From the NCBI GenBank assembly GCA_964525295.1, contig CAZGEO010000001.1, positions 73,671 through 137,670 on the forward strand: a DNA stretch of 64,000 nucleotides. Direction: 5' to 3'. Under the pieces are notes generated by a model, which searched no databases, was not told the DNA's origin, and saw only the letters and a list, made by a program, of their open reading frames with translations. The DNA is from an uncultured Candidatus Saccharibacteria bacterium. GTDB lineage: Bacteria > Patescibacteriota > Dojkabacteria > GCA-002793355. The position numbers and the translations under genes were made by a program. This document shows, piece after piece, positions 19,467 to 61,839 of this stretch (positions are counted from its first letter, which is position 1; each line of letters opens with the position of its first letter).

Positions 19467-20356
19467 CGTTTACCACCAAACAATGATTTCATCATCGACT
19501 TCATTTCATCTAACGGACCTGGTAGCTTTTTAACTTCTACACCAAGTGAGCTTGTAGTTTGAACTGTTTCTGTCGTTTGAGCAACTTCAGGTTGAACAAA
19601 TTGCTGTTGTGGTAATGGTTGAGCCATTCTTTCTTCAGGAATGCCTCGCATTTGTTGTATATAGCGATTTTTTTCTATAAGTAACTGCTGCAACGTATAC
19701 AGTTCTTGTTGCATCGAAGCCAACGAAGCTTCCATTTGTTTTGTTCGAATATCAAGATCATTCATTGATTGTTTTAATGATGCATGTTCTCGAGCTTTCT
19801 CCACAAGTTGTTTGTGTTCTGGCAAGGTTAACAGGCTCTTAACCAATGATTCCTCGGTTAATGTACTAAATCGATAATAGCTAAAATCACGGTCTGAGGC
19901 TTCTTTACCTAAAACGAGAAGGAATGTTTCTGTAATAACTCGACGTCGCTCATCTTCTGTCATTCTTGAAAGTGATTGACCTTTAATTGGTGATGAACTT
20001 TTCGTATTGTTTGGTGAAAAAGAGGGAAGAGTACTCGGTAAATCATCAGATTCATCAATATCAAAATCTTCTAATGAAAAATCTCCATCATCATCAAGAC
20101 TCGGCTGCGGTGGTTGTGCCACCGATTGCATTTTAGGAACCATATTTTGCACTCGAGATAGCGGATTTTGAGCTAGCATTGGAGCATTTGACTGCATAAC
20201 AGGAGTTTGAACTGGAATTGTCACAGGAGAATCTTGTTGAGCAATTGGCATAGCAGGAGGCGATGAAACAGGTGGATTAATCGTAGTATTTGAATCTGCA
20301 GGAAGTGAACCTTGGGCAGAATTTCTCACTTGCCCTGGCGTTGACACTATTGGCAT
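19463..20356 (-). CDS. Pro/Gln-rich hypothetical protein with DUF4214-like segment
   Basis: ITETFLLVLGKEASDRDFSYYRFS resembles the DUF4214 pattern. Otherwise low complexity. Confidence 0.35.
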   Translation of the reverse strand: MPIVSTPGQVRNSAQGSLPADSNTTINPPVSSPPAMPIAQQDSPVTIPVQTPVMQSNAPMLAQNPLSRVQNMVPKMQSVAQPPQPSLDDDGDFSLEDFDIDESDDLPSTLPSFSPNNTKSSSPIKGQSLSRMTEDERRRVITETFLLVLGKEASDRDFSYYRFSTLTEESLVKSLLTLPEHKQLVEKAREHASLKQSMNDLDIRTKQMEASLASMQQELYTLQQLLIEKNRYIQQMRGIPEERMAQPLPQQQFVQPEVAQTTETVQTTSSLGVEVKKLPGPLDEMKSMMKSLFGGKR

Positions 20357-20396
20357 GTTGAATTATACCATTTTGTCATGATAGAATCTAATTGTT

Positions 20397-20470
20397 GCGG
20401 ACGTAGTTCAGTTGGCTAGAACGCCTCCTTGCCAAGGAGGAGGTCGCGGGTTCGAATCCCGTCGTCCGCT
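20397..20470 (+). tRNA. tRNA-Gly (GCC)
   Basis: Acceptor GCGGACG/CGTCCGC, D-arm GTTC-AGTTGGCTA-GAAC, anticodon stem CCTCC/GGAGG with loop TTGCCAA, T-arm GCGGG-TTCGAAT-CCCGT. Upstream TTGAAT-18-TAGAAT promoter. Confidence 0.85.
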
Positions 20471-20783
20471 TTTTCTTCTTTTAGCTTCCCATTTTCTCTA
20501 AAGCAACTCCACTCACACCAGAAACATCTTCATATTTCCGGTTATGCTCGTCCGTTTACTTTATTCTTGGTGTTGCGCACAAAAAATAAAAAGCGGGAAG
20601 TTAAAAGAAGAAGGAAATGTAATGAGGGATTCGAAACCCAAGGAGAATGTAGCAACCTACATTCGACAAAGGGCGGGGCTGCGCCTAACAACCCCTAAAA
20701 CTTATAAGTGCAATTTTAGTGATGAATCAACATAAGGAAGATGAATCCTGAAATTGGTGGGAAGCCGAATCCCGTCGTCCGCT
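20471..20783 (+). repeat. tRNA-3'-flanking element copy 3 (after tRNA-Gly)
   Basis: CGAATCCCGTCGTCCGC at 20765-20781 duplicates tRNA positions 56-72 at 20453-20469. Hairpin AATGTAG-CAAC-CTACATT at 20646-20663. Core AGGGCGGGGCTGCGCCTAACAACC at 20669-20693. Junction AAATTGGTGGGAAGCCGAATCCC. Confidence 0.7.
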
Positions 20784-20830
20784 TATGGGTTGGTGTTCAT
20801 CTGAAAAGATGGATAGCAACCCATTTTTAT
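20784..20830 (+). terminator. rho-independent terminator immediately after element copy 3
   Basis: ATGGGTTG...CAACCCAT 8-bp stem followed by TTTTATT. Confidence 0.55.
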
Positions 20831-20856
20831 TATGTCGGGATACGATATAATGGGGT

Positions 20857-21213
20857 ATGAAATACATTAAAGCAGGAGCAAGTCAAAAAATTGTTAAAGA
20901 AGATTACGCCAAAGAAATACTTTTTGACTCAACCGATCTTCCCGAAGGTGGGCACTTACTTCAAATAGTTACAATACCACCAAATACCAACCAACGAATT
21001 CACAGCCACGATCAACAAACTGAAGTCTTTTTAATCCTTTCAGGAGAGTGCGACATAATCATTAACGGAACCGTTTTTAACGCTACCCCAGGTGACGCCT
21101 TTGTATGTTCACCAGGCGATAAACACAATCTTCATAATCGCTCCAATACTGAATTTAAACTCGCTGTTTTCAAAATTAACCTGCCCATCTCAGATGATAC
21201 CCACTGGAGCTAA
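20857..21213 (+). CDS. cupin-domain protein
   Basis: Two-His cupin motif region (HSHDQQTEVFLILSGE ... GDKHNL). Confidence 0.55.
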   Translation: MKYIKAGASQKIVKEDYAKEILFDSTDLPEGGHLLQIVTIPPNTNQRIHSHDQQTEVFLILSGECDIIINGTVFNATPGDAFVCSPGDKHNLHNRSNTEFKLAVFKINLPISDDTHWS

Positions 21214-35367: not shown

Positions 35368-35444
35368 TGGGCACGTAGCTCAGCTGGTTAGAGCATCCCG
35401 TTCACATCGGGAAGGTCACAGGTTCGAGTCCTGTCATGCCCACC
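35368..35444 (+). tRNA. tRNA-Val (CAC) with encoded CCA
   Basis: D-arm GCTC-AGCTGGTTA-GAGC, anticodon stem TCCCG/CGGGA with loop TTCACAT, T-arm ACAGG-TTCGAGT-CCTGT, acceptor with one C-A mismatch at 6-67. CCA is encoded. Confidence 0.75.
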
Positions 35445-35539
35445 AATAATAAAGCATTAGAGCTGTAAAGCAATAAAACGTCAAAATCCAAACTCTTTAT
35501 CGCTCTACTCCTTTATCGCTTTAATTCTTTACCGCAATA

Positions 35540-48784: not shown

Positions 48785-49297
48785 ATGTCGCCATTGTTCA
48801 GCCAAGAATCAGATTGGGCGAACGTACATTTTCATATTGAAATATTTACTGCGTCAGACTTTACAGGTGAATTGACACCACTTAAGCAATCTTGTGGCTT
48901 AGCACTTAACACAACTAATCGAGTGTTGCTCGTTAAAGGTCGCAGCGGGCTTTGGCAACTGCCCGGTGGCAGAATCGAACCTGATGAAACTCCGGTTGAA
49001 GCGTTAAATAGAGAACTTCTTGAAGAGGCCGCTGTCATCGTCGATCAATCAAGCATACAGCTTGCTTTTTTTCAAAGCAACTCCATAACAAAAGATGGCA
49101 TTACCACATTCAAAGGATATGAACTGAGATACTTCTGCAAAATCATCGAGCAACAAGAATTTTTCAATGATCCTGATAAAGGAGATGTAACAGAACAAAT
49201 GTATTGCGAAATAAATGAATTAGATAAATATCTCCTTTGGGGGGAAACAACGACCTTCATTCAACAGCTCCTGAAAAATTTTATAATTAGTAATTGA
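48785..49297 (+). CDS. NUDIX hydrolase
   Basis: Nudix box LPGGRIEPDETPVEALNRELLEEAAV. Confidence 0.6.
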   Translation: MSPLFSQESDWANVHFHIEIFTASDFTGELTPLKQSCGLALNTTNRVLLVKGRSGLWQLPGGRIEPDETPVEALNRELLEEAAVIVDQSSIQLAFFQSNSITKDGITTFKGYELRYFCKIIEQQEFFNDPDKGDVTEQMYCEINELDKYLLWGETTTFIQQLLKNFIISN

Positions 49298-56179: not shown

Positions 56180-56477
56180 GCAGGAAAACAGGGGAGAATC
56201 AATTAATAAGGGTATCCCGTTAGCGACATAAAACAATAAAGCGCTAGATCGTCGGCACTACAAGTACTAAGGCGTTACTTCTTCGAGCCCCGCGTCGCCT
56301 GAATGAACGTCAGTACATTTTCCCTAGCACTTCAACTCCCACACTAAACTTTCTCATTTTTCTTTCTCTCATCAAATACCCTTTATTCGGCATTTTGATT
56401 TTATTGAATCTCAGTATGCGGTGAGCGTAACCGAAAGAACTCCGTCTTTCGGTAGTGAACGAACAGCATTATTAACA
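56180..56477 (-). repeat. divergent partial copy of the tRNA-flanking element, in tandem after copy 5
   Basis: The minus strand reads ...GGGAAAATGTACTGACGTTCATTCAGGCGACGCGGGGCTCGAAG..., i.e. hairpin plus GCGGGGCT core. No clear 3' junction or tRNA-end copy. Confidence 0.4.
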
Positions 56478-56784
56478 TAATGAGAGAAAGAAAAATGAAA
56501 TGCCGAAGGAGGGACTCGAACACCCAACAATTTCAGGATTCACCGCGCAATACTTGTTCATCACTGAAATTGCACTTGATACATTTATATGATTTTAGGC
56601 GCGTTCCCGCTCTCGTCAAACGTAAGGTCACTTACGTTTTCCTCAAGTTTCGAGTCACACAGCTTAACCTCTTCCTTATTTTTTCCTCACAACATTTTTT
56701 TGTGCGTAAACCAAATGAAGTAGATTACTTCATCGGTAACAAACGAAAGGTCTCGGAAAAATGGTGAGGAGAAAAATAATGAAA
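56478..56784 (-). repeat. tRNA-3'-flanking element copy 5 (after tRNA-Leu, minus strand)
   Basis: tgccgaaggagggactcgaac on the plus strand at 56501-56521 duplicates 56785-56805, the last 21 nt of tRNA-Leu, with a similar pyrimidine-rich flank. Minus-strand junction AAATTGTTGGGTGTTCGAGTCCC. Hairpin AACGTAAG-GTCA-CTTACGTT at 56618-56637. Core at 56591-56614. Confidence 0.7.
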
Positions 56785-56868
56785 TGCCGAAGGAGGGACT
56801 CGAACCCTCACACTATTGCTAGTACTAGCTCCTGAAGCTAGCGCGTCTGCCAATTCCGCCACCCCGGC
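56785..56868 (-). tRNA. tRNA-Leu (CAG), type II with long variable arm
   Basis: Reverse complement folds as: acceptor GCCGGGG/CTTCGGC with two G-U pairs, anticodon stem CTAGC/GCTAG with loop TTCAGGA, 15-nt variable arm, T-arm GAGGG-TTCGAGT-CCCTC. Confidence 0.8.
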
Positions 56869-58565
56869 ACGAGCTTCCAAGTATGAATATTCGAAAATCT
56901 ATCGCTTGGATCGACAAAAGATTCCGAAACTTTACGGTCAATTATATCAAAGGATACTTCATAATACGAAGGATGATACAAAAATATCGCAGGAACTTCC
57001 GTTACCAAAGCTTTTTGAAAATCTTTATAGGTAACTAATCTTTTTTCAGCATTAATCTGTAAACGACCTTTTTCCAAATAATTATCTACAAGCGTTGATT
57101 TATATCCACCCAAGTTTAAGCCCGGAAATGTAGTTTGCGAAGAATGCCACAGCCCATACTGATCTGGATCAATACCCGAATGAATTTCAAACAACAGCAT
57201 TTCGAACTCTTTCTTCGCAATAACAGCTTCTTGCATGTTTTCACTCGTAACACCTTCTAATGTCAAATTGAAGCCGACTTTAAGTAATTGATCTCTAATA
57301 TTTTGCGCTACTTGCCTGTTTACTGGAGTATCCAAAAAGGTCAATGTTGCGCCTAATTCTTTCTCTTTCTGCGTTCTAAATGGCGCACCCGAATATTCGT
57401 ATTTCCAGCCTAATTTATCGAATACTTTATTTGCATCTTCCTGCGAAAATTGGAGTAATTTGTCGAGTTCTGTATTATAGACATAACTATTTGAATCAAA
57501 TGGCCCTTGGGCGACTTTTGCGCCAGGCAATGTAGCTACCAATGCGTTTTTATCAATAGATTGTGCGAGTGCCTGGCGCAACTGAATATTTACCAGTAAG
57601 CTCTCATTTTCAGCTTCCTCTAAACTACCTGACAGATTAAACAAAATGACACGAGTATTATTTGCTTGCACGTATTTTTTTAACGAAACGTGCGAAGCTA
57701 CGGTTGCTGCATTTATCCACTTGGGAACAACCGCAGGCTCAAGTGGTGCAAGTAACATGACAGTTCCCTTGAGAAAGGCTACTTCTGCTGCAGCATACGT
57801 TTGAAATTCTGTAAATGAAATTTCCTTAATTTCTGGCGCACCCTTAAAATATTTTTGATTGGCGCGTAAATTATGCTTGTTACCGAGCTTCTGTACATAC
57901 TGATATGGCCCCGTTCCGATAGGCGAAATGGTGTCTCCTTGCTCAACTAACCTGGAATAAGTGTAATCTCTAAATAAATGTTCTGGCAGAATGCCAATCG
58001 TTATCAACTCTAAAAATGCTGCATTTACCTGTGGCAAAGTAAACTGTACCTGATAGTCACCAATTGCTTGAAATTGTACACCAGTCATAATTGCGCCAAG
58101 CACCGTATCATCACCACCCGATTGAATGATTTTGTAAGTATTTACAACGTCTTCTGCGGTAAACAGTTCGCCGTCATGCCAATAAATGTTTTCACGAAGA
58201 AATATTGTATACTTTCGACCATCTGGTGAAATTTCCCATGTTTCTGCAAGTTCTGGCGTAATACGACCAGATTGACTATCAATTGAGACCAATCCTGAAT
58301 AAATCAGGCTAGTAATTAGTTGAGAAGATTCATCAGTAGAAACATCAAGAGGATTGATTTGCGATACAGAACCAACAATTCCATATTTCAATTCTTGACC
58401 AAAAACTCGAATACTTGCAACAGAATTAACAAAAAGTGCAATAATAAAAAAGATTAAAATTCCCGTGACAATTCCCGCAAGAATTCTAAATAAAGACGAG
58501 AAAAGGGCTACGAAATTAATAATCCCTTGCGGATATCCCCACAGGATATCGCGAAATGATGACAT
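56838..58565 (-). CDS. ABC transporter substrate-binding protein (family 5, peptide/nickel type)
   Basis: N-terminal TM/signal, then a ~540-aa SBP_bac_5-like region. The 3' end overlaps tRNA-Leu by 31 nt. Confidence 0.65.
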   Translation of the reverse strand: MSSFRDILWGYPQGIINFVALFSSLFRILAGIVTGILIFFIIALFVNSVASIRVFGQELKYGIVGSVSQINPLDVSTDESSQLITSLIYSGLVSIDSQSGRITPELAETWEISPDGRKYTIFLRENIYWHDGELFTAEDVVNTYKIIQSGGDDTVLGAIMTGVQFQAIGDYQVQFTLPQVNAAFLELITIGILPEHLFRDYTYSRLVEQGDTISPIGTGPYQYVQKLGNKHNLRANQKYFKGAPEIKEISFTEFQTYAAAEVAFLKGTVMLLAPLEPAVVPKWINAATVASHVSLKKYVQANNTRVILFNLSGSLEEAENESLLVNIQLRQALAQSIDKNALVATLPGAKVAQGPFDSNSYVYNTELDKLLQFSQEDANKVFDKLGWKYEYSGAPFRTQKEKELGATLTFLDTPVNRQVAQNIRDQLLKVGFNLTLEGVTSENMQEAVIAKKEFEMLLFEIHSGIDPDQYGLWHSSQTTFPGLNLGGYKSTLVDNYLEKGRLQINAEKRLVTYKDFQKALVTEVPAIFLYHPSYYEVSFDIIDRKVSESFVDPSDRFSNIHTWKLVPGWRNWQTR

Positions 58566-61210: not shown

Positions 61211-61282
61211 GGTGATGTAGCCAAGTGGTAAGGCAGCGGTCTGCAAAACCGCTATGCGCGGGTTCGAATCCCGCCATCACCT
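61211..61282 (+). tRNA. tRNA-Cys (GCA)
   Basis: Acceptor GGTGATG/CATCACC, anticodon stem GCGGT/ACCGC with loop CTGCAAA, T-arm GCGGG-TTCGAAT-CCCGC. Confidence 0.85.
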
Positions 61283-61420
61283 AATTCAAATTTCCCTTAA
61301 CACATAATTCCGGTTGATTTAAACAACGGAGTATTTCGAATAACAACCGTTACAAAAAGAAAAATTTTTTTCTAGGAAATGTAACGACCTACATTCAACG
61401 GGGTGGGTGAATCCCACTAT
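61283..61420 (+). repeat. degenerate fragment of the tRNA-flanking element after tRNA-Cys
   Basis: CGAATAACAACC, hairpin AATGTA-ACGACC-TACATT, then CAACGGGGTGGGTGAATCCC. The tRNA-end copy is not preserved. Confidence 0.4.
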
Positions 61421-61839
61421 TACGCAGAATACTCATTAGAAACGAATTGAGATACTCTCTCAATGTCATCGTCAGAAATCTCTGTTGAATTGATATCTTC
61501 AATAAGCTTATTCATAATGATATTTATCTCTTTTTGGAACAATTCAATAGTTAAAACGCGATCGACATTGGTATTACTTCTATATATTTGAAACGCTTTT
61601 TGTGTTGTTGCCTTAATTCTATCAATGGCAACAAAATAATCGAGCGAATTTTTTTCTGTAGCAGAAAAAAGTGATCCAATGCTACCGTTAGGCTGAGCAA
61701 AATGCGCCAATTTATGCCTGAAATTATTTAGAAGTGACGTTGCATTACGTTTATTGTAAAGGCCATACCTCTTTAGTGTAAATTTTACTGCATCATCTTC
61801 ATAAGTTACTTTCATGAAAACTTTTTTTTTAGTTATCAC
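61420..61839 (-). CDS. hypothetical protein
   Basis: 139-aa ORF with no motif. Followed by ~260 nt without an ORF. Confidence 0.3.
   Translation of the reverse strand: MITKKKVFMKVTYEDDAVKFTLKRYGLYNKRNATSLLNNFRHKLAHFAQPNGSIGSLFSATEKNSLDYFVAIDRIKATTQKAFQIYRSNTNVDRVLTIELFQKEINIIMNKLIEDINSTEISDDDIERVSQFVSNEYSA

Follow-up and report, generated by a model that had tools for sequence, protein, structure and literature searches.

The DNA analysed here is a stretch of 64,000 nucleotides (the window) from an uncultured Candidatus Saccharibacteria bacterium, corresponding to positions 73,671 to 137,670 of contig CAZGEO010000001.1 in assembly GCA_964525295.1. Within it, the gene for the glycine transfer RNA (tRNA) is directly followed by a 313-nt insert, which belongs to a previously undescribed family of RNA-structured units, lacking an open reading frame (ORF) and specific for the 3' ends of tRNA genes. 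Homologous non-coding units, about 285-315 nt long, are located directly 3' of six of the eight tRNA genes seen. They are read, with a probability of about one half, as a selfish, site-specific element which propagates via an RNA or RNA-guided intermediate, and inserts at T55/C56 of the tRNA gene with duplication of the target. The evidence base consists of six copies from one species, and both expression and mobility are deduced from it.

The family was collected by using the 313-nt insert as query in blastn and nhmmer searches. Four full copies were detected in the window, with E values from 1e-68 to 1e-72, each directly 3' of a tRNA gene; besides tRNA-Gly(GCC), the genes involved are tRNA-Thr(TGT), tRNA-Thr(GGT) and tRNA-Leu(CAG). 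Two defective copies, one in tandem after the Leu(CAG) copy and one behind tRNA-Cys, are reported in Table 1 together with the complete ones. A sixth full copy is found behind tRNA-Leu(TAA), about 0.3 kb past the right end of the window (sequence L017; E = 8e-42), and has lost its repeat after CGAC. Each copy with a surviving repeat ends in the 3' part of its own tRNA. The genes for tRNA-Arg and tRNA-Val are without an element. The loop end of the T stem is GGG/CCC in all six element-bearing tRNAs and AGG/CCT in the two others (Fisher p = 0.036, on a small sample). In addition, tRNA-Val(CAC), at 35369-35445, which has the AGG/CCT T stem and no element, is the sole one of the eight with an encoded CCA.

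The relationships among the copies do not follow those among the tRNAs. Core sequences are 79% identical between the Thr(TGT) and Leu(TAA) copies and 81% between the Thr(GGT) and Gly copies, while all other pairs range from 57 to 71%. Element relatedness thus cuts across tRNA identity, which implies that copies have moved between different tRNAs. In the Thr(TGT) copy the repeat is longer and cleaner than in any other, the match of the tRNA-antisense segment (see below) is the poorest, and the AAATGCC typical of the Leu copies is present; judged from sequence, this copy would look like a recent arrival from a Leu locus. A module of about 40 nt, GAAGTAAC[GA]CCTTA[GA]TAC..GTAG[TC]GCC[GA]ACGAT, is common to the degenerate second Leu(CAG) unit (56240-56290, minus strand) and to the sequence just past the Leu(TAA) unit (L017, 5080-5150, minus strand), and is found nowhere else in the examined DNA. 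It may mark a second subtype of the element.

No conserved ORF was found in the element. The only shared frame, of 40 codons in the Gly and Thr(GGT) copies, is not kept in the others, where it is broken by stops and recoded by compensatory changes; a protein-coding function was therefore rejected. Similarly, Rfam searches over the element, at the gathering thresholds and at E <= 10 with permissive filters, returned only tRNA.

Secondary structure of the element

The fold consists of two domains. A pyrimidine-rich arm opens each unit, immediately behind the last base of the tRNA, and its purine-rich partner is located 60-110 nt downstream; the resulting helix, P1, comprises 19-26 bp in all six units and has a different sequence in each. 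P1 contains 14 U.G wobbles, which would be A.C mismatches if the other strand were folded, indicating that the tRNA strand is the folded one. The minimum free energy (MFE) of the whole element does not separate the two strands, whereas the wobble counts of P1 do. Between its arms lies a variable region, with a hairpin and a conserved motif of GTTACGC type.

Two features of this domain were noted in addition. The GUUACGC-type motif at 20572-20580 might pair with GCG..UAAC in the J5/6 segment of the second domain (20683-20689), and likewise at the equivalent sites within other units; by eye, a double change that fits such a pairing (UUUACGC with CCUAAA) is seen once, in the Leu(CAG) unit. Just 5' of the purine arm of P1, a run of A residues is accompanied by 4-7 nt complementary to the last acceptor bases of the tRNA (AAAAAGCGG, AAAAAGCTG and AAAATGCCG in the three segments of Table 1). 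When the longest exact run of complementarity to the acceptor 3' end was evaluated, the own tRNA performed no better than foreign tRNAs, and the match is not significant.

The second domain is a three-way junction formed by helices P2 to P6, and was defined by RNAalifold and by pair counting on an alignment of the copies (A2). In this conserved domain, 95.1% of the cells are paired. Double-sided changes occur in 16 of the 38 pairs; shuffled alignments give 7.5 +/- 1.7, none of 500 reaching the observed value, and slid controls give at most 4. P2 joins the internal GGGANUC to the GANUCCC of the terminal tRNA copy. P3 is CUC/GAG, replaced by CCC/GGG in the Gly copy. P5 joins GGCUGC-CC to the element 3' end, GGGNAGCC, and shows three consecutive compensatory pairs in the Leu(CAG) copy. 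P6 includes a tandem G.A/A.G with co-varying pairs on its flanks; its tip contains a UGAUGA...CUGA look-alike, and the arm gives a weak match to the C/D-box RNA sR18 (E = 0.6). The fold thus takes in the opening 8 nt of the terminal tRNA copy and leaves its last 9-11 nt, copied from the acceptor 3' strand, single-stranded. A further likeness, 81% between CCAAGGAGGAGGTCGC of tRNA-Gly (20432-20447) and CCAAGGAGAATGTAGC of the element (20638-20653), is probably coincidental, since the latter stretch is also conserved behind Thr(GGT).

A preliminary description of the Gly locus had suggested that RNase P and RNase Z could release an RNA of about 310 nt with a T-arm-like hairpin, GGGA-AGCCGAA-TCCC, and a tRNA-like 3' end. 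According to the covariation, GGGAAGCC pairs with the upstream GGCUGCGCC, and GAAUCCC with the internal GGGAUUC. The 3' bases of the element are thereby assigned to P5 and P2, and the hairpin is not a supported fold. As the acceptor copy has no 5' partner within the element, RNase P would also lack an obvious substrate at this end. It is very unlikely, for these reasons, that the product is handled like a tRNA or a transfer-messenger RNA (tmRNA), by CCA addition or charging, although the 3' end does hold the 3' half of a T loop and an acceptor 3' strand, and in a co-transcript the distal strand can pair with the tRNA 5' strand. The covariation of GGGNAGCC and GANUCCC, the missing 5' acceptor strand and the failure of ARAGORN and Rfam to detect any tRNA-like or tmRNA gene at this place all speak against it, and the class assignment was rejected.

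The position of the repeat junction, at a three-way junction rich in conserved unpaired bases, could suggest a self-splicing (group I-like) intron or a self-cleaving ribozyme residing in, or derived from, the T loop. This is highly improbable. The upstream tRNA is already complete, no group I, group II or ribozyme model of Rfam matches at E <= 10, and the ends break the rule of an exon-final U and an intron-final G. Group I introns of Patescibacteria tRNAs occupy the 35/36 site of the anticodon loop, are about 300 nt long, mostly ORF-less, and fit group I models (10.1101/2025.07.03.662931). The element comes from the same phylum, is likewise associated with tRNAs and has the same size, but it leaves the tRNA intact and has no group I match. 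Group I and II introns were rejected on this basis, as were the small self-cleaving ribozymes (hammerhead, twister, HDV-like and others), for which no covariance model matched at E <= 10.

Relation to the resident tRNA and predicted transcription

The unit behind tRNA-Gly is flanked by direct repeats of the tRNA 3' end. The 17-mer CGAATCCCGTCGTCCGC occurs exactly at 20453-20469 and 20766-20782 and nowhere else in the 64 kb, against 0.01 occurrences expected by chance. The duplication reported in the preliminary description is thus an exact repeat, although the interval 20765-20781 assigned to it was off by one and the true length is 19 nt. The left edge of the repeat lies at C56 in three copies, those ending in the standard ...NAGC; it appears to be shifted 2 nt upstream in Leu(CAG), where the two extra bases are also compensatory changes of P5, and 3 nt downstream in the decayed remnant behind tRNA-Cys. 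The right edge is variable: the repeat measures 19 nt in Gly, 17 nt exact or 28 nt at 86% in Thr(GGT), 27 nt in Leu(CAG), and 54 nt with one mismatch in Thr(TGT).

In addition, each element contains a segment, here called anti-T, with the sequence GGGA-N-TCGAA, which is the reverse complement of the T loop and T-stem 3' strand of its own tRNA, TTCGA-N'-TCCC. The variable base co-varies with the resident tRNA, N:N' being T:A in Thr(TGT), G:C in Thr(GGT), T:A in Gly, C:G in Leu(CAG) and G:C in Leu(TAA). In the Gly copy, the segment at 20626-20639 is complementary over 13 nt (92%) to 20448-20460. On the tRNA strand of the window, GGGA-N-TCGAA is found inside elements only.

When tRNA and element are folded as a single RNA, the 5' acceptor strand of the tRNA pairs with the distal copy in the MFE structure at all four loci, and the T arm of the tRNA pairs with the anti-T segment; the alternative pairing with the downstream copy, suggested in the preliminary description as an in silico check, is thereby predicted. 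At three loci the swapped fold is better than the canonical one by 5-6 kcal/mol. These are nearest-neighbour energies, which ignore tRNA tertiary structure and the order of co-transcriptional folding, and the calculation shows only that canonical and strand-swapped forms of the predicted co-transcript can compete.

Most economically, the locus would be read as a single transcription unit of tRNA and element: a promoter-like site precedes the tRNA, the element contains none, its first helix starts right behind the tRNA, the fold is that of the tRNA strand, and a strong terminator comes after the copy. The TTGAAT-18-TAGAAT sequence, described earlier as a promoter, is present at 20358-20387, 9 nt upstream of tRNA-Gly, with 9 of 12 consensus matches; it is the only promoter-like site in 20200-21000, where 1.5 are expected by chance. 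Equally, no terminator separates the tRNA from the element, as had been proposed: a consensus scanner reported no terminator-like site in 20200-21000, and no G+C-rich hairpin with a U-run appears in the fold of 20471-20783. The sequence directly 3' of tRNA-Gly, UUUUUCUUCUUUU, does not form a canonical terminator but makes up the 5' arm of a long helix.

The hairpin and U-tract described close to the 3' side of the repeat were found again at 20785-20833, where a stable, G+C-containing hairpin is followed at once by a U-tract, the arrangement of an intrinsic terminator. The hairpin (20785-20824) begins 1 nt past the 19-nt repeat and has a folding energy of -25.2 kcal/mol (z = -6.5), with 0 of 200 shuffled sequences folding as well. 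It was overlooked by the consensus scanner, probably on account of stem mismatches, given the scanner's rules as read here. No terminator was found behind the Thr(TGT), Thr(GGT) and Leu(CAG) copies, and only the Gly copy has one. Since the other copies are without it, the terminator cannot be counted as part of the element. It is placed right after the repeat, as the tRNA gene's own would be, and is best explained as probably the original terminator of tRNA-Gly, displaced by 313 nt through the insertion.

Proposed propagation of the elements

In the preferred reading, that of a selfish, site-specific element, the unit would lack a promoter and rely on that of the tRNA, its transcript extending the pre-tRNA at the 3' end. 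The cut that processes the tRNA 3' end, of RNase Z type, would free the element, whose 5' end would be closed off within P1. Behind tRNA-Gly, transcription would stop at the former terminator of the tRNA. Insertion would take place in the T loop of the tRNA gene, between T55 and C56, and would duplicate the stretch that begins there and finishes, at a place differing among copies, at the tRNA end or past it (19-54 nt). Through this duplication the tRNA would stay intact, and every copy would bear the 3' end of its own tRNA; since the family is found at six different, probably single-copy and unbroken tRNAs, target duplication appears to be the only simple route. The enzyme, whether a reverse transcriptase, a recombinase or a nuclease, would act in trans, being encoded at another place in the genome. 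The tandem, deleted and repeat-less copies fit a cycle of invasion and decay.

A more specific version, proposed tentatively and with a good deal less confidence, is that the freed trailer RNA of about 300 nt homes back to tRNA genes by recognition written in the RNA, as a bacterial analogue of short interspersed nuclear elements (SINEs) or of R2; it would then be the first bacterial 'hitch-hiker' of this kind. In the T-loop/acceptor region, one strand would be paired by the anti-T segment and the other by the 3' tail. Reverse transcription primed from nicked target DNA, or else an RNA-guided recombinase, would insert the element; in both cases the tRNA 3' end would be duplicated and the gene would survive.

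Several observations weigh against the selfish, RNA-mediated reading. No recombinase, integrase, transposase, reverse transcriptase, nuclease or TnpB-like protein was found in about 79 kb, comprising the window and its flanks. Neither empty sites nor circle junctions nor any presence/absence polymorphism came to light; the contigs of the only other strain available, which is 98% identical, break at these loci. The element is known from one species. Core-pattern scans of genome, metagenome and viral contig collections, checked by nhmmer and tRNA scans, gave chance matches or none, and blastn gave no match to the element in phage and plasmid collections; SecA relatives of the host are 74-77% identical. 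The duplex energies of the anti-T segments hardly distinguish between tRNAs, owing to the close similarity among T arms. At three loci the repeat continues into P1-arm-like sequence, so that the duplication model needs tandem insertion followed by deletion there; tandem copies could also explain it. Finally, the copies are old (57-81% identical) and yet the folds have been kept, which is also compatible with selection, locus by locus, for a host function.

This last point leads to a rather doubtful alternative, in which the units serve the host as cis-acting 3' extensions of the pre-tRNA, gating or monitoring its folding, processing or stability. The anti-T segment, P1 and the A-run would clamp the 3' half of the tRNA, the downstream copy would offer an alternative partner to the 5' half, and the conserved junction domain would bind a protein or a ligand. 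Preservation of the fold by compensatory changes in diverged copies at different loci would be accounted for, and so would the co-variation of the anti-T base with the resident tRNA. The tRNA-derived part of the repeat has remained perfect in Thr(GGT) and Leu(CAG), though the adjacent sequence diverged; the swapped conformer is the predicted MFE fold at four of four loci; and occupancy, at six of the eight tRNAs, is very high. Against a host function stand the decayed or truncated copies at Cys, at the second Leu(CAG) position and at Leu(TAA), where the repeat is lost, and the fact that Arg and Val manage without an element. Likewise, the element phylogeny crosses tRNA identity, so that copies must have moved, and the genome, metagenome, viral, phage and plasmid searches revealed no homologue; the energies behind the swapped conformer, moreover, leave out tertiary structure and co-transcriptional folding.

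An unlikely explanation is that the units are miniature remnants or satellites of an integrase-driven element, similar to a cis-mobilizable element (CIME), bounded by attL and attR, which recombines in the T loop through an integrase encoded elsewhere and forms tandem copies by accretion. A full tRNA and a partial 3' copy around an insert are the classic signature of integration, and accretion and decayed remnants are known at tRNA genes (10.1101/2022.07.05.498093; 10.1101/2020.12.28.424599). All these traits, with repeats of tens of bp that can run past the tRNA end, are shared between the element and the prophages, remnants of integrative and conjugative elements (ICE) or CIMEs, and tycheposons integrated at tRNA genes (same references). 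Direct repeats holding the 3' part of the tRNA do flank the inserts (19, 28, 54 and 27 nt), extending past the tRNA end in the 54-nt repeat of Thr(TGT), and the sequence at the element end, GGTGGG-NAGC-CGA-N-TCCC, is similar to a T arm, which would be expected of an attP core. The element, however, measures only 0.3 kb, contains no ORF and no integrase, and includes the duplicated target bases in its fold; no integrase is present in 79 kb, nor is there any recombinase Pfam match in the window or its flanks. One attP and one attB would imply one cognate tRNA, whereas the family is found at Thr(TGT), Thr(GGT), Gly, Leu(CAG), Leu(TAA) and Cys. Under reciprocal recombination, a single 0.3-kb family at six or more tRNAs would need the correct 3' end for each, and a jump to a new tRNA would yield a chimeric, broken and probably single-copy tRNA. 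Uniform size, RNA-type covariation and U.G wobbles are not expected of leftover att arms.

The remaining candidates were compared with the element one at a time and rejected. A miniature inverted-repeat transposable element (MITE) does not fit, as the inverted repeats are internal (P1 and anti-T), with none at the termini, and the duplication is variable, at 19-54 nt. A palindrome-associated transposable element (PATE) of the IS200/IS605 type, or a TnpB omega-RNA, was excluded on the basis of the direct repeat, the missing Rfam match and the missing OrfB-type Pfam match in 79 kb; an IS110 bridge or seek RNA, because no gene for an IS110/IS1111 DEDD recombinase is present in the window or its flanks; and a T-box leader (RF00230), because there is no Rfam match and the downstream genes are mutually unrelated and often convergent. 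The hammerhead or twister look-alikes CGAAAC, UGAUGA and GCCUAAC were dismissed by sequence reading or Rfam, as were a dif/Xer site, an integron attC core, a k-turn reading of P6 and terminal inverted repeats.

Feature list, neighbouring sequences and known systems

Table 1. Parts of the tRNA-Gly locus and of its element, and the other copies of the family, with positions in the window.
Feature	Position	Strand	Description
Promoter-like site TTGAAT-18-TAGAAT	20358-20387	+	TTGAAT 20358-20363, TAGAAT 20382-20387; TG before the -10 hexamer
tRNA-Gly(GCC), complete	20397-20470	+	No encoded CCA; ARAGORN; Rfam 72.6 bits
Proximal 19-nt repeat copy	20453-20471	+	From T-loop C56 to the discriminator + 1 nt
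P1 5' arm, pyrimidine-rich	20471-20495	+	Begins at first base after tRNA-Gly
Conserved single-stranded motif GTTGCGCAC	20572-20580	+	GTTACGC-type elsewhere; from alignments and direct sequence reading
A-run segments	20588-20596; 4229-4237; Leu(TAA) unit on L017		Position consistent across copies
P1 3' arm, purine-rich, GGGAAGTTAAAAGAAGAAGGAAA	20590-20618	+	AAAAAGCGG upstream, complementary to the last bases of the tRNA and the first trailing Ts
Anti-T segment GGGATTCGAAACCC	20626-20639	+	P2 5' strand; last 3 nt are the P3 5' strand
P4 hairpin AATGTAG-CAAC-CTACATT	20646-20663	+	Compensatory changes in 5 of 6 counted pairs
P3 3' strand and P5 5' strand	20671-20685	+	GGG (20671-20673) and GGCTGCGCC (20677-20685); covariation
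J5/6 (TAACAACC..TAAAA..)	20686-20710	+	Conserved, unpaired, fixed length; 0 indels among five copies
P6 arm CAATTTTAG/CTGAAATTG	20711-20756	+	Then GAT/ATC, tandem G.A/A.G, variable tip; covariation
P5 3' strand GGGAAGCC	20759-20766	+	Conserved 3' end of element and first repeat base
Distal 19-nt repeat copy	20766-20784	+	20767-20773 is the P2 3' strand; 20774-20784, acceptor 3' strand copy, unpaired
Intrinsic terminator	20785-20833	+	Hairpin 20785-20824 (ATGGGTTG...CAACCCAT), then UUUU-A-UU-A-U
Copy behind tRNA-Thr(TGT) (2463-2536)	2537-2866	+	E = 4e-68; 54-nt repeat 2518-2571 / 2813-2866, 1 mismatch
Copy behind tRNA-Thr(GGT) (4087-4160)	4161-4471	+	E = 6e-72; repeat 4143-4170 / 4444-4471
Copy behind tRNA-Leu(CAG) (56784-56869, minus)	56494-56783	-	E = 9e-70; exact 27-nt repeat from 56804 and 56520
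Degenerate second copy, in tandem after the Leu(CAG) copy	~56240-56493	-	E = 2.4e-5; own P1, 3' end gone
Internally deleted remnant behind tRNA-Cys (61211-61282)	61283-61423	+	P4 hairpin, GGTGGGTG, decayed repeat with 12/15 matches

The encoded proteins are of bacterial type, and a SecA search assigns the genome to Candidatus Dojkabacteria (WS6, Patescibacteria). A strain with 98% nucleotide identity (SRR32934939) has the same loci, and its contigs end at tRNAs or elements; the same holds for all the contigs of the species from SRR32934939 and SRR11582162. Similarly, the Logan contigs L005, L025 and L018 end at about 2818, 20410 and 56622, showing that short-read assemblies break at or beside the tRNA-element loci. 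In practice, therefore, the elements fragment assemblies and give rise to stray calls of partial tRNAs.

Other differences between the strains were found outside the elements. A segment of about 435 bp, at 48813-49249, carries a NUDIX-family gene and is absent from SRR32934939 (L024), which makes it a strain-level indel. A species-restricted ORFan (ORF 3466-4047) encodes 193 aa here and 290 aa in the other strain, with about 270 extra bases at approximately 3924-3944. The gene at 928-1815, for an Erm/KsgA-like rRNA adenine methyltransferase, has best non-self relatives which are 35-38% identical, compared to 74-77% for SecA; it may be fast-evolving or horizontally acquired. The loci L021-L023, from unrelated high-GC organisms and reached via the neighbouring ORFan and the Erm/KsgA-like gene, contain tRNAs without repeats.

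Among known systems, dicistronic genes combining a tRNA and a non-coding RNA, such as plant tRNA-snoRNA (small nucleolar RNA) genes, MALAT1-mascRNA and the small RNAs of bacterial 3' external transcribed spacers (3'ETS), are processed by RNase Z or RNase P and have no promoter of their own. The expression logic proposed for the element is the same, with a 5' end produced by tRNA 3' processing; those, however, are single genes, whereas the element is a repeated family with target duplication and a tRNA-antisense segment.

R2, located in 28S rDNA, is a site-specific retroelement carried on the transcript of its host gene and expressed from the promoter of its target. With R2 and SINEs the element would share expression from the promoter of the target, a non-coding unit of about 300 nt reliant on an enzyme acting in trans, and a structured region near the 3' end; its target duplication may also resemble theirs, in having one nearly constant and one variable edge. 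The element differs from them in being bacterial, in having no A-rich tail and no reverse-transcriptase partner in about 79 kb, and in including the duplicated target in its fold.

RNAs that bear guides are found in other mobile elements, as in the pairing of exon- and intron-binding sites (EBS/IBS) of group II introns and in the TnpB omega-RNA. The bridge RNA of IS110 is a further case (PMC11208160). With all of these the element shares a structured RNA, a segment of which pairs and co-varies with the insertion site; the 3' stretch behind the scaffold, 17-19 nt in which the flank is repeated exactly, resembles an omega-RNA guide. In contrast, no tnpB, IS110 recombinase or intron-encoded protein is adjacent to the element, there is no Rfam match, and its 'guide' is also intact just upstream, so that it would target itself. 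Dada DNA transposons of fish, which encode a transposase, insert specifically into tRNA and small nuclear RNA genes (PMC8869645); the targeting of tRNA genes is alike, but they are eukaryotic and bear no relation to the element in sequence or structure. The element is thus partly similar to integrative elements, in target and repeat, to SINE/R2 types, in its proposed hitch-hiking expression and its variable duplication, and to guide-bearing RNAs, in the antisense segment that co-varies, but belongs to none of these groups.

The elements leave partial tRNA copies, which annotation tools may mistake for genes. If the interpretation is true, a new class would stand beside group II introns, TnpB/IscB systems and IS110, in which the choice of the site is encoded in RNA, and which colonises essential single-copy tRNA genes without destroying them. 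The locus would also provide a natural pre-tRNA whose 3' trailer competes with the tRNA's own 3' half. For the organism, it would mean that a streamlined Patescibacteria genome of 0.66 Mb tolerates, or uses, a structured RNA behind most of the tRNA genes seen.

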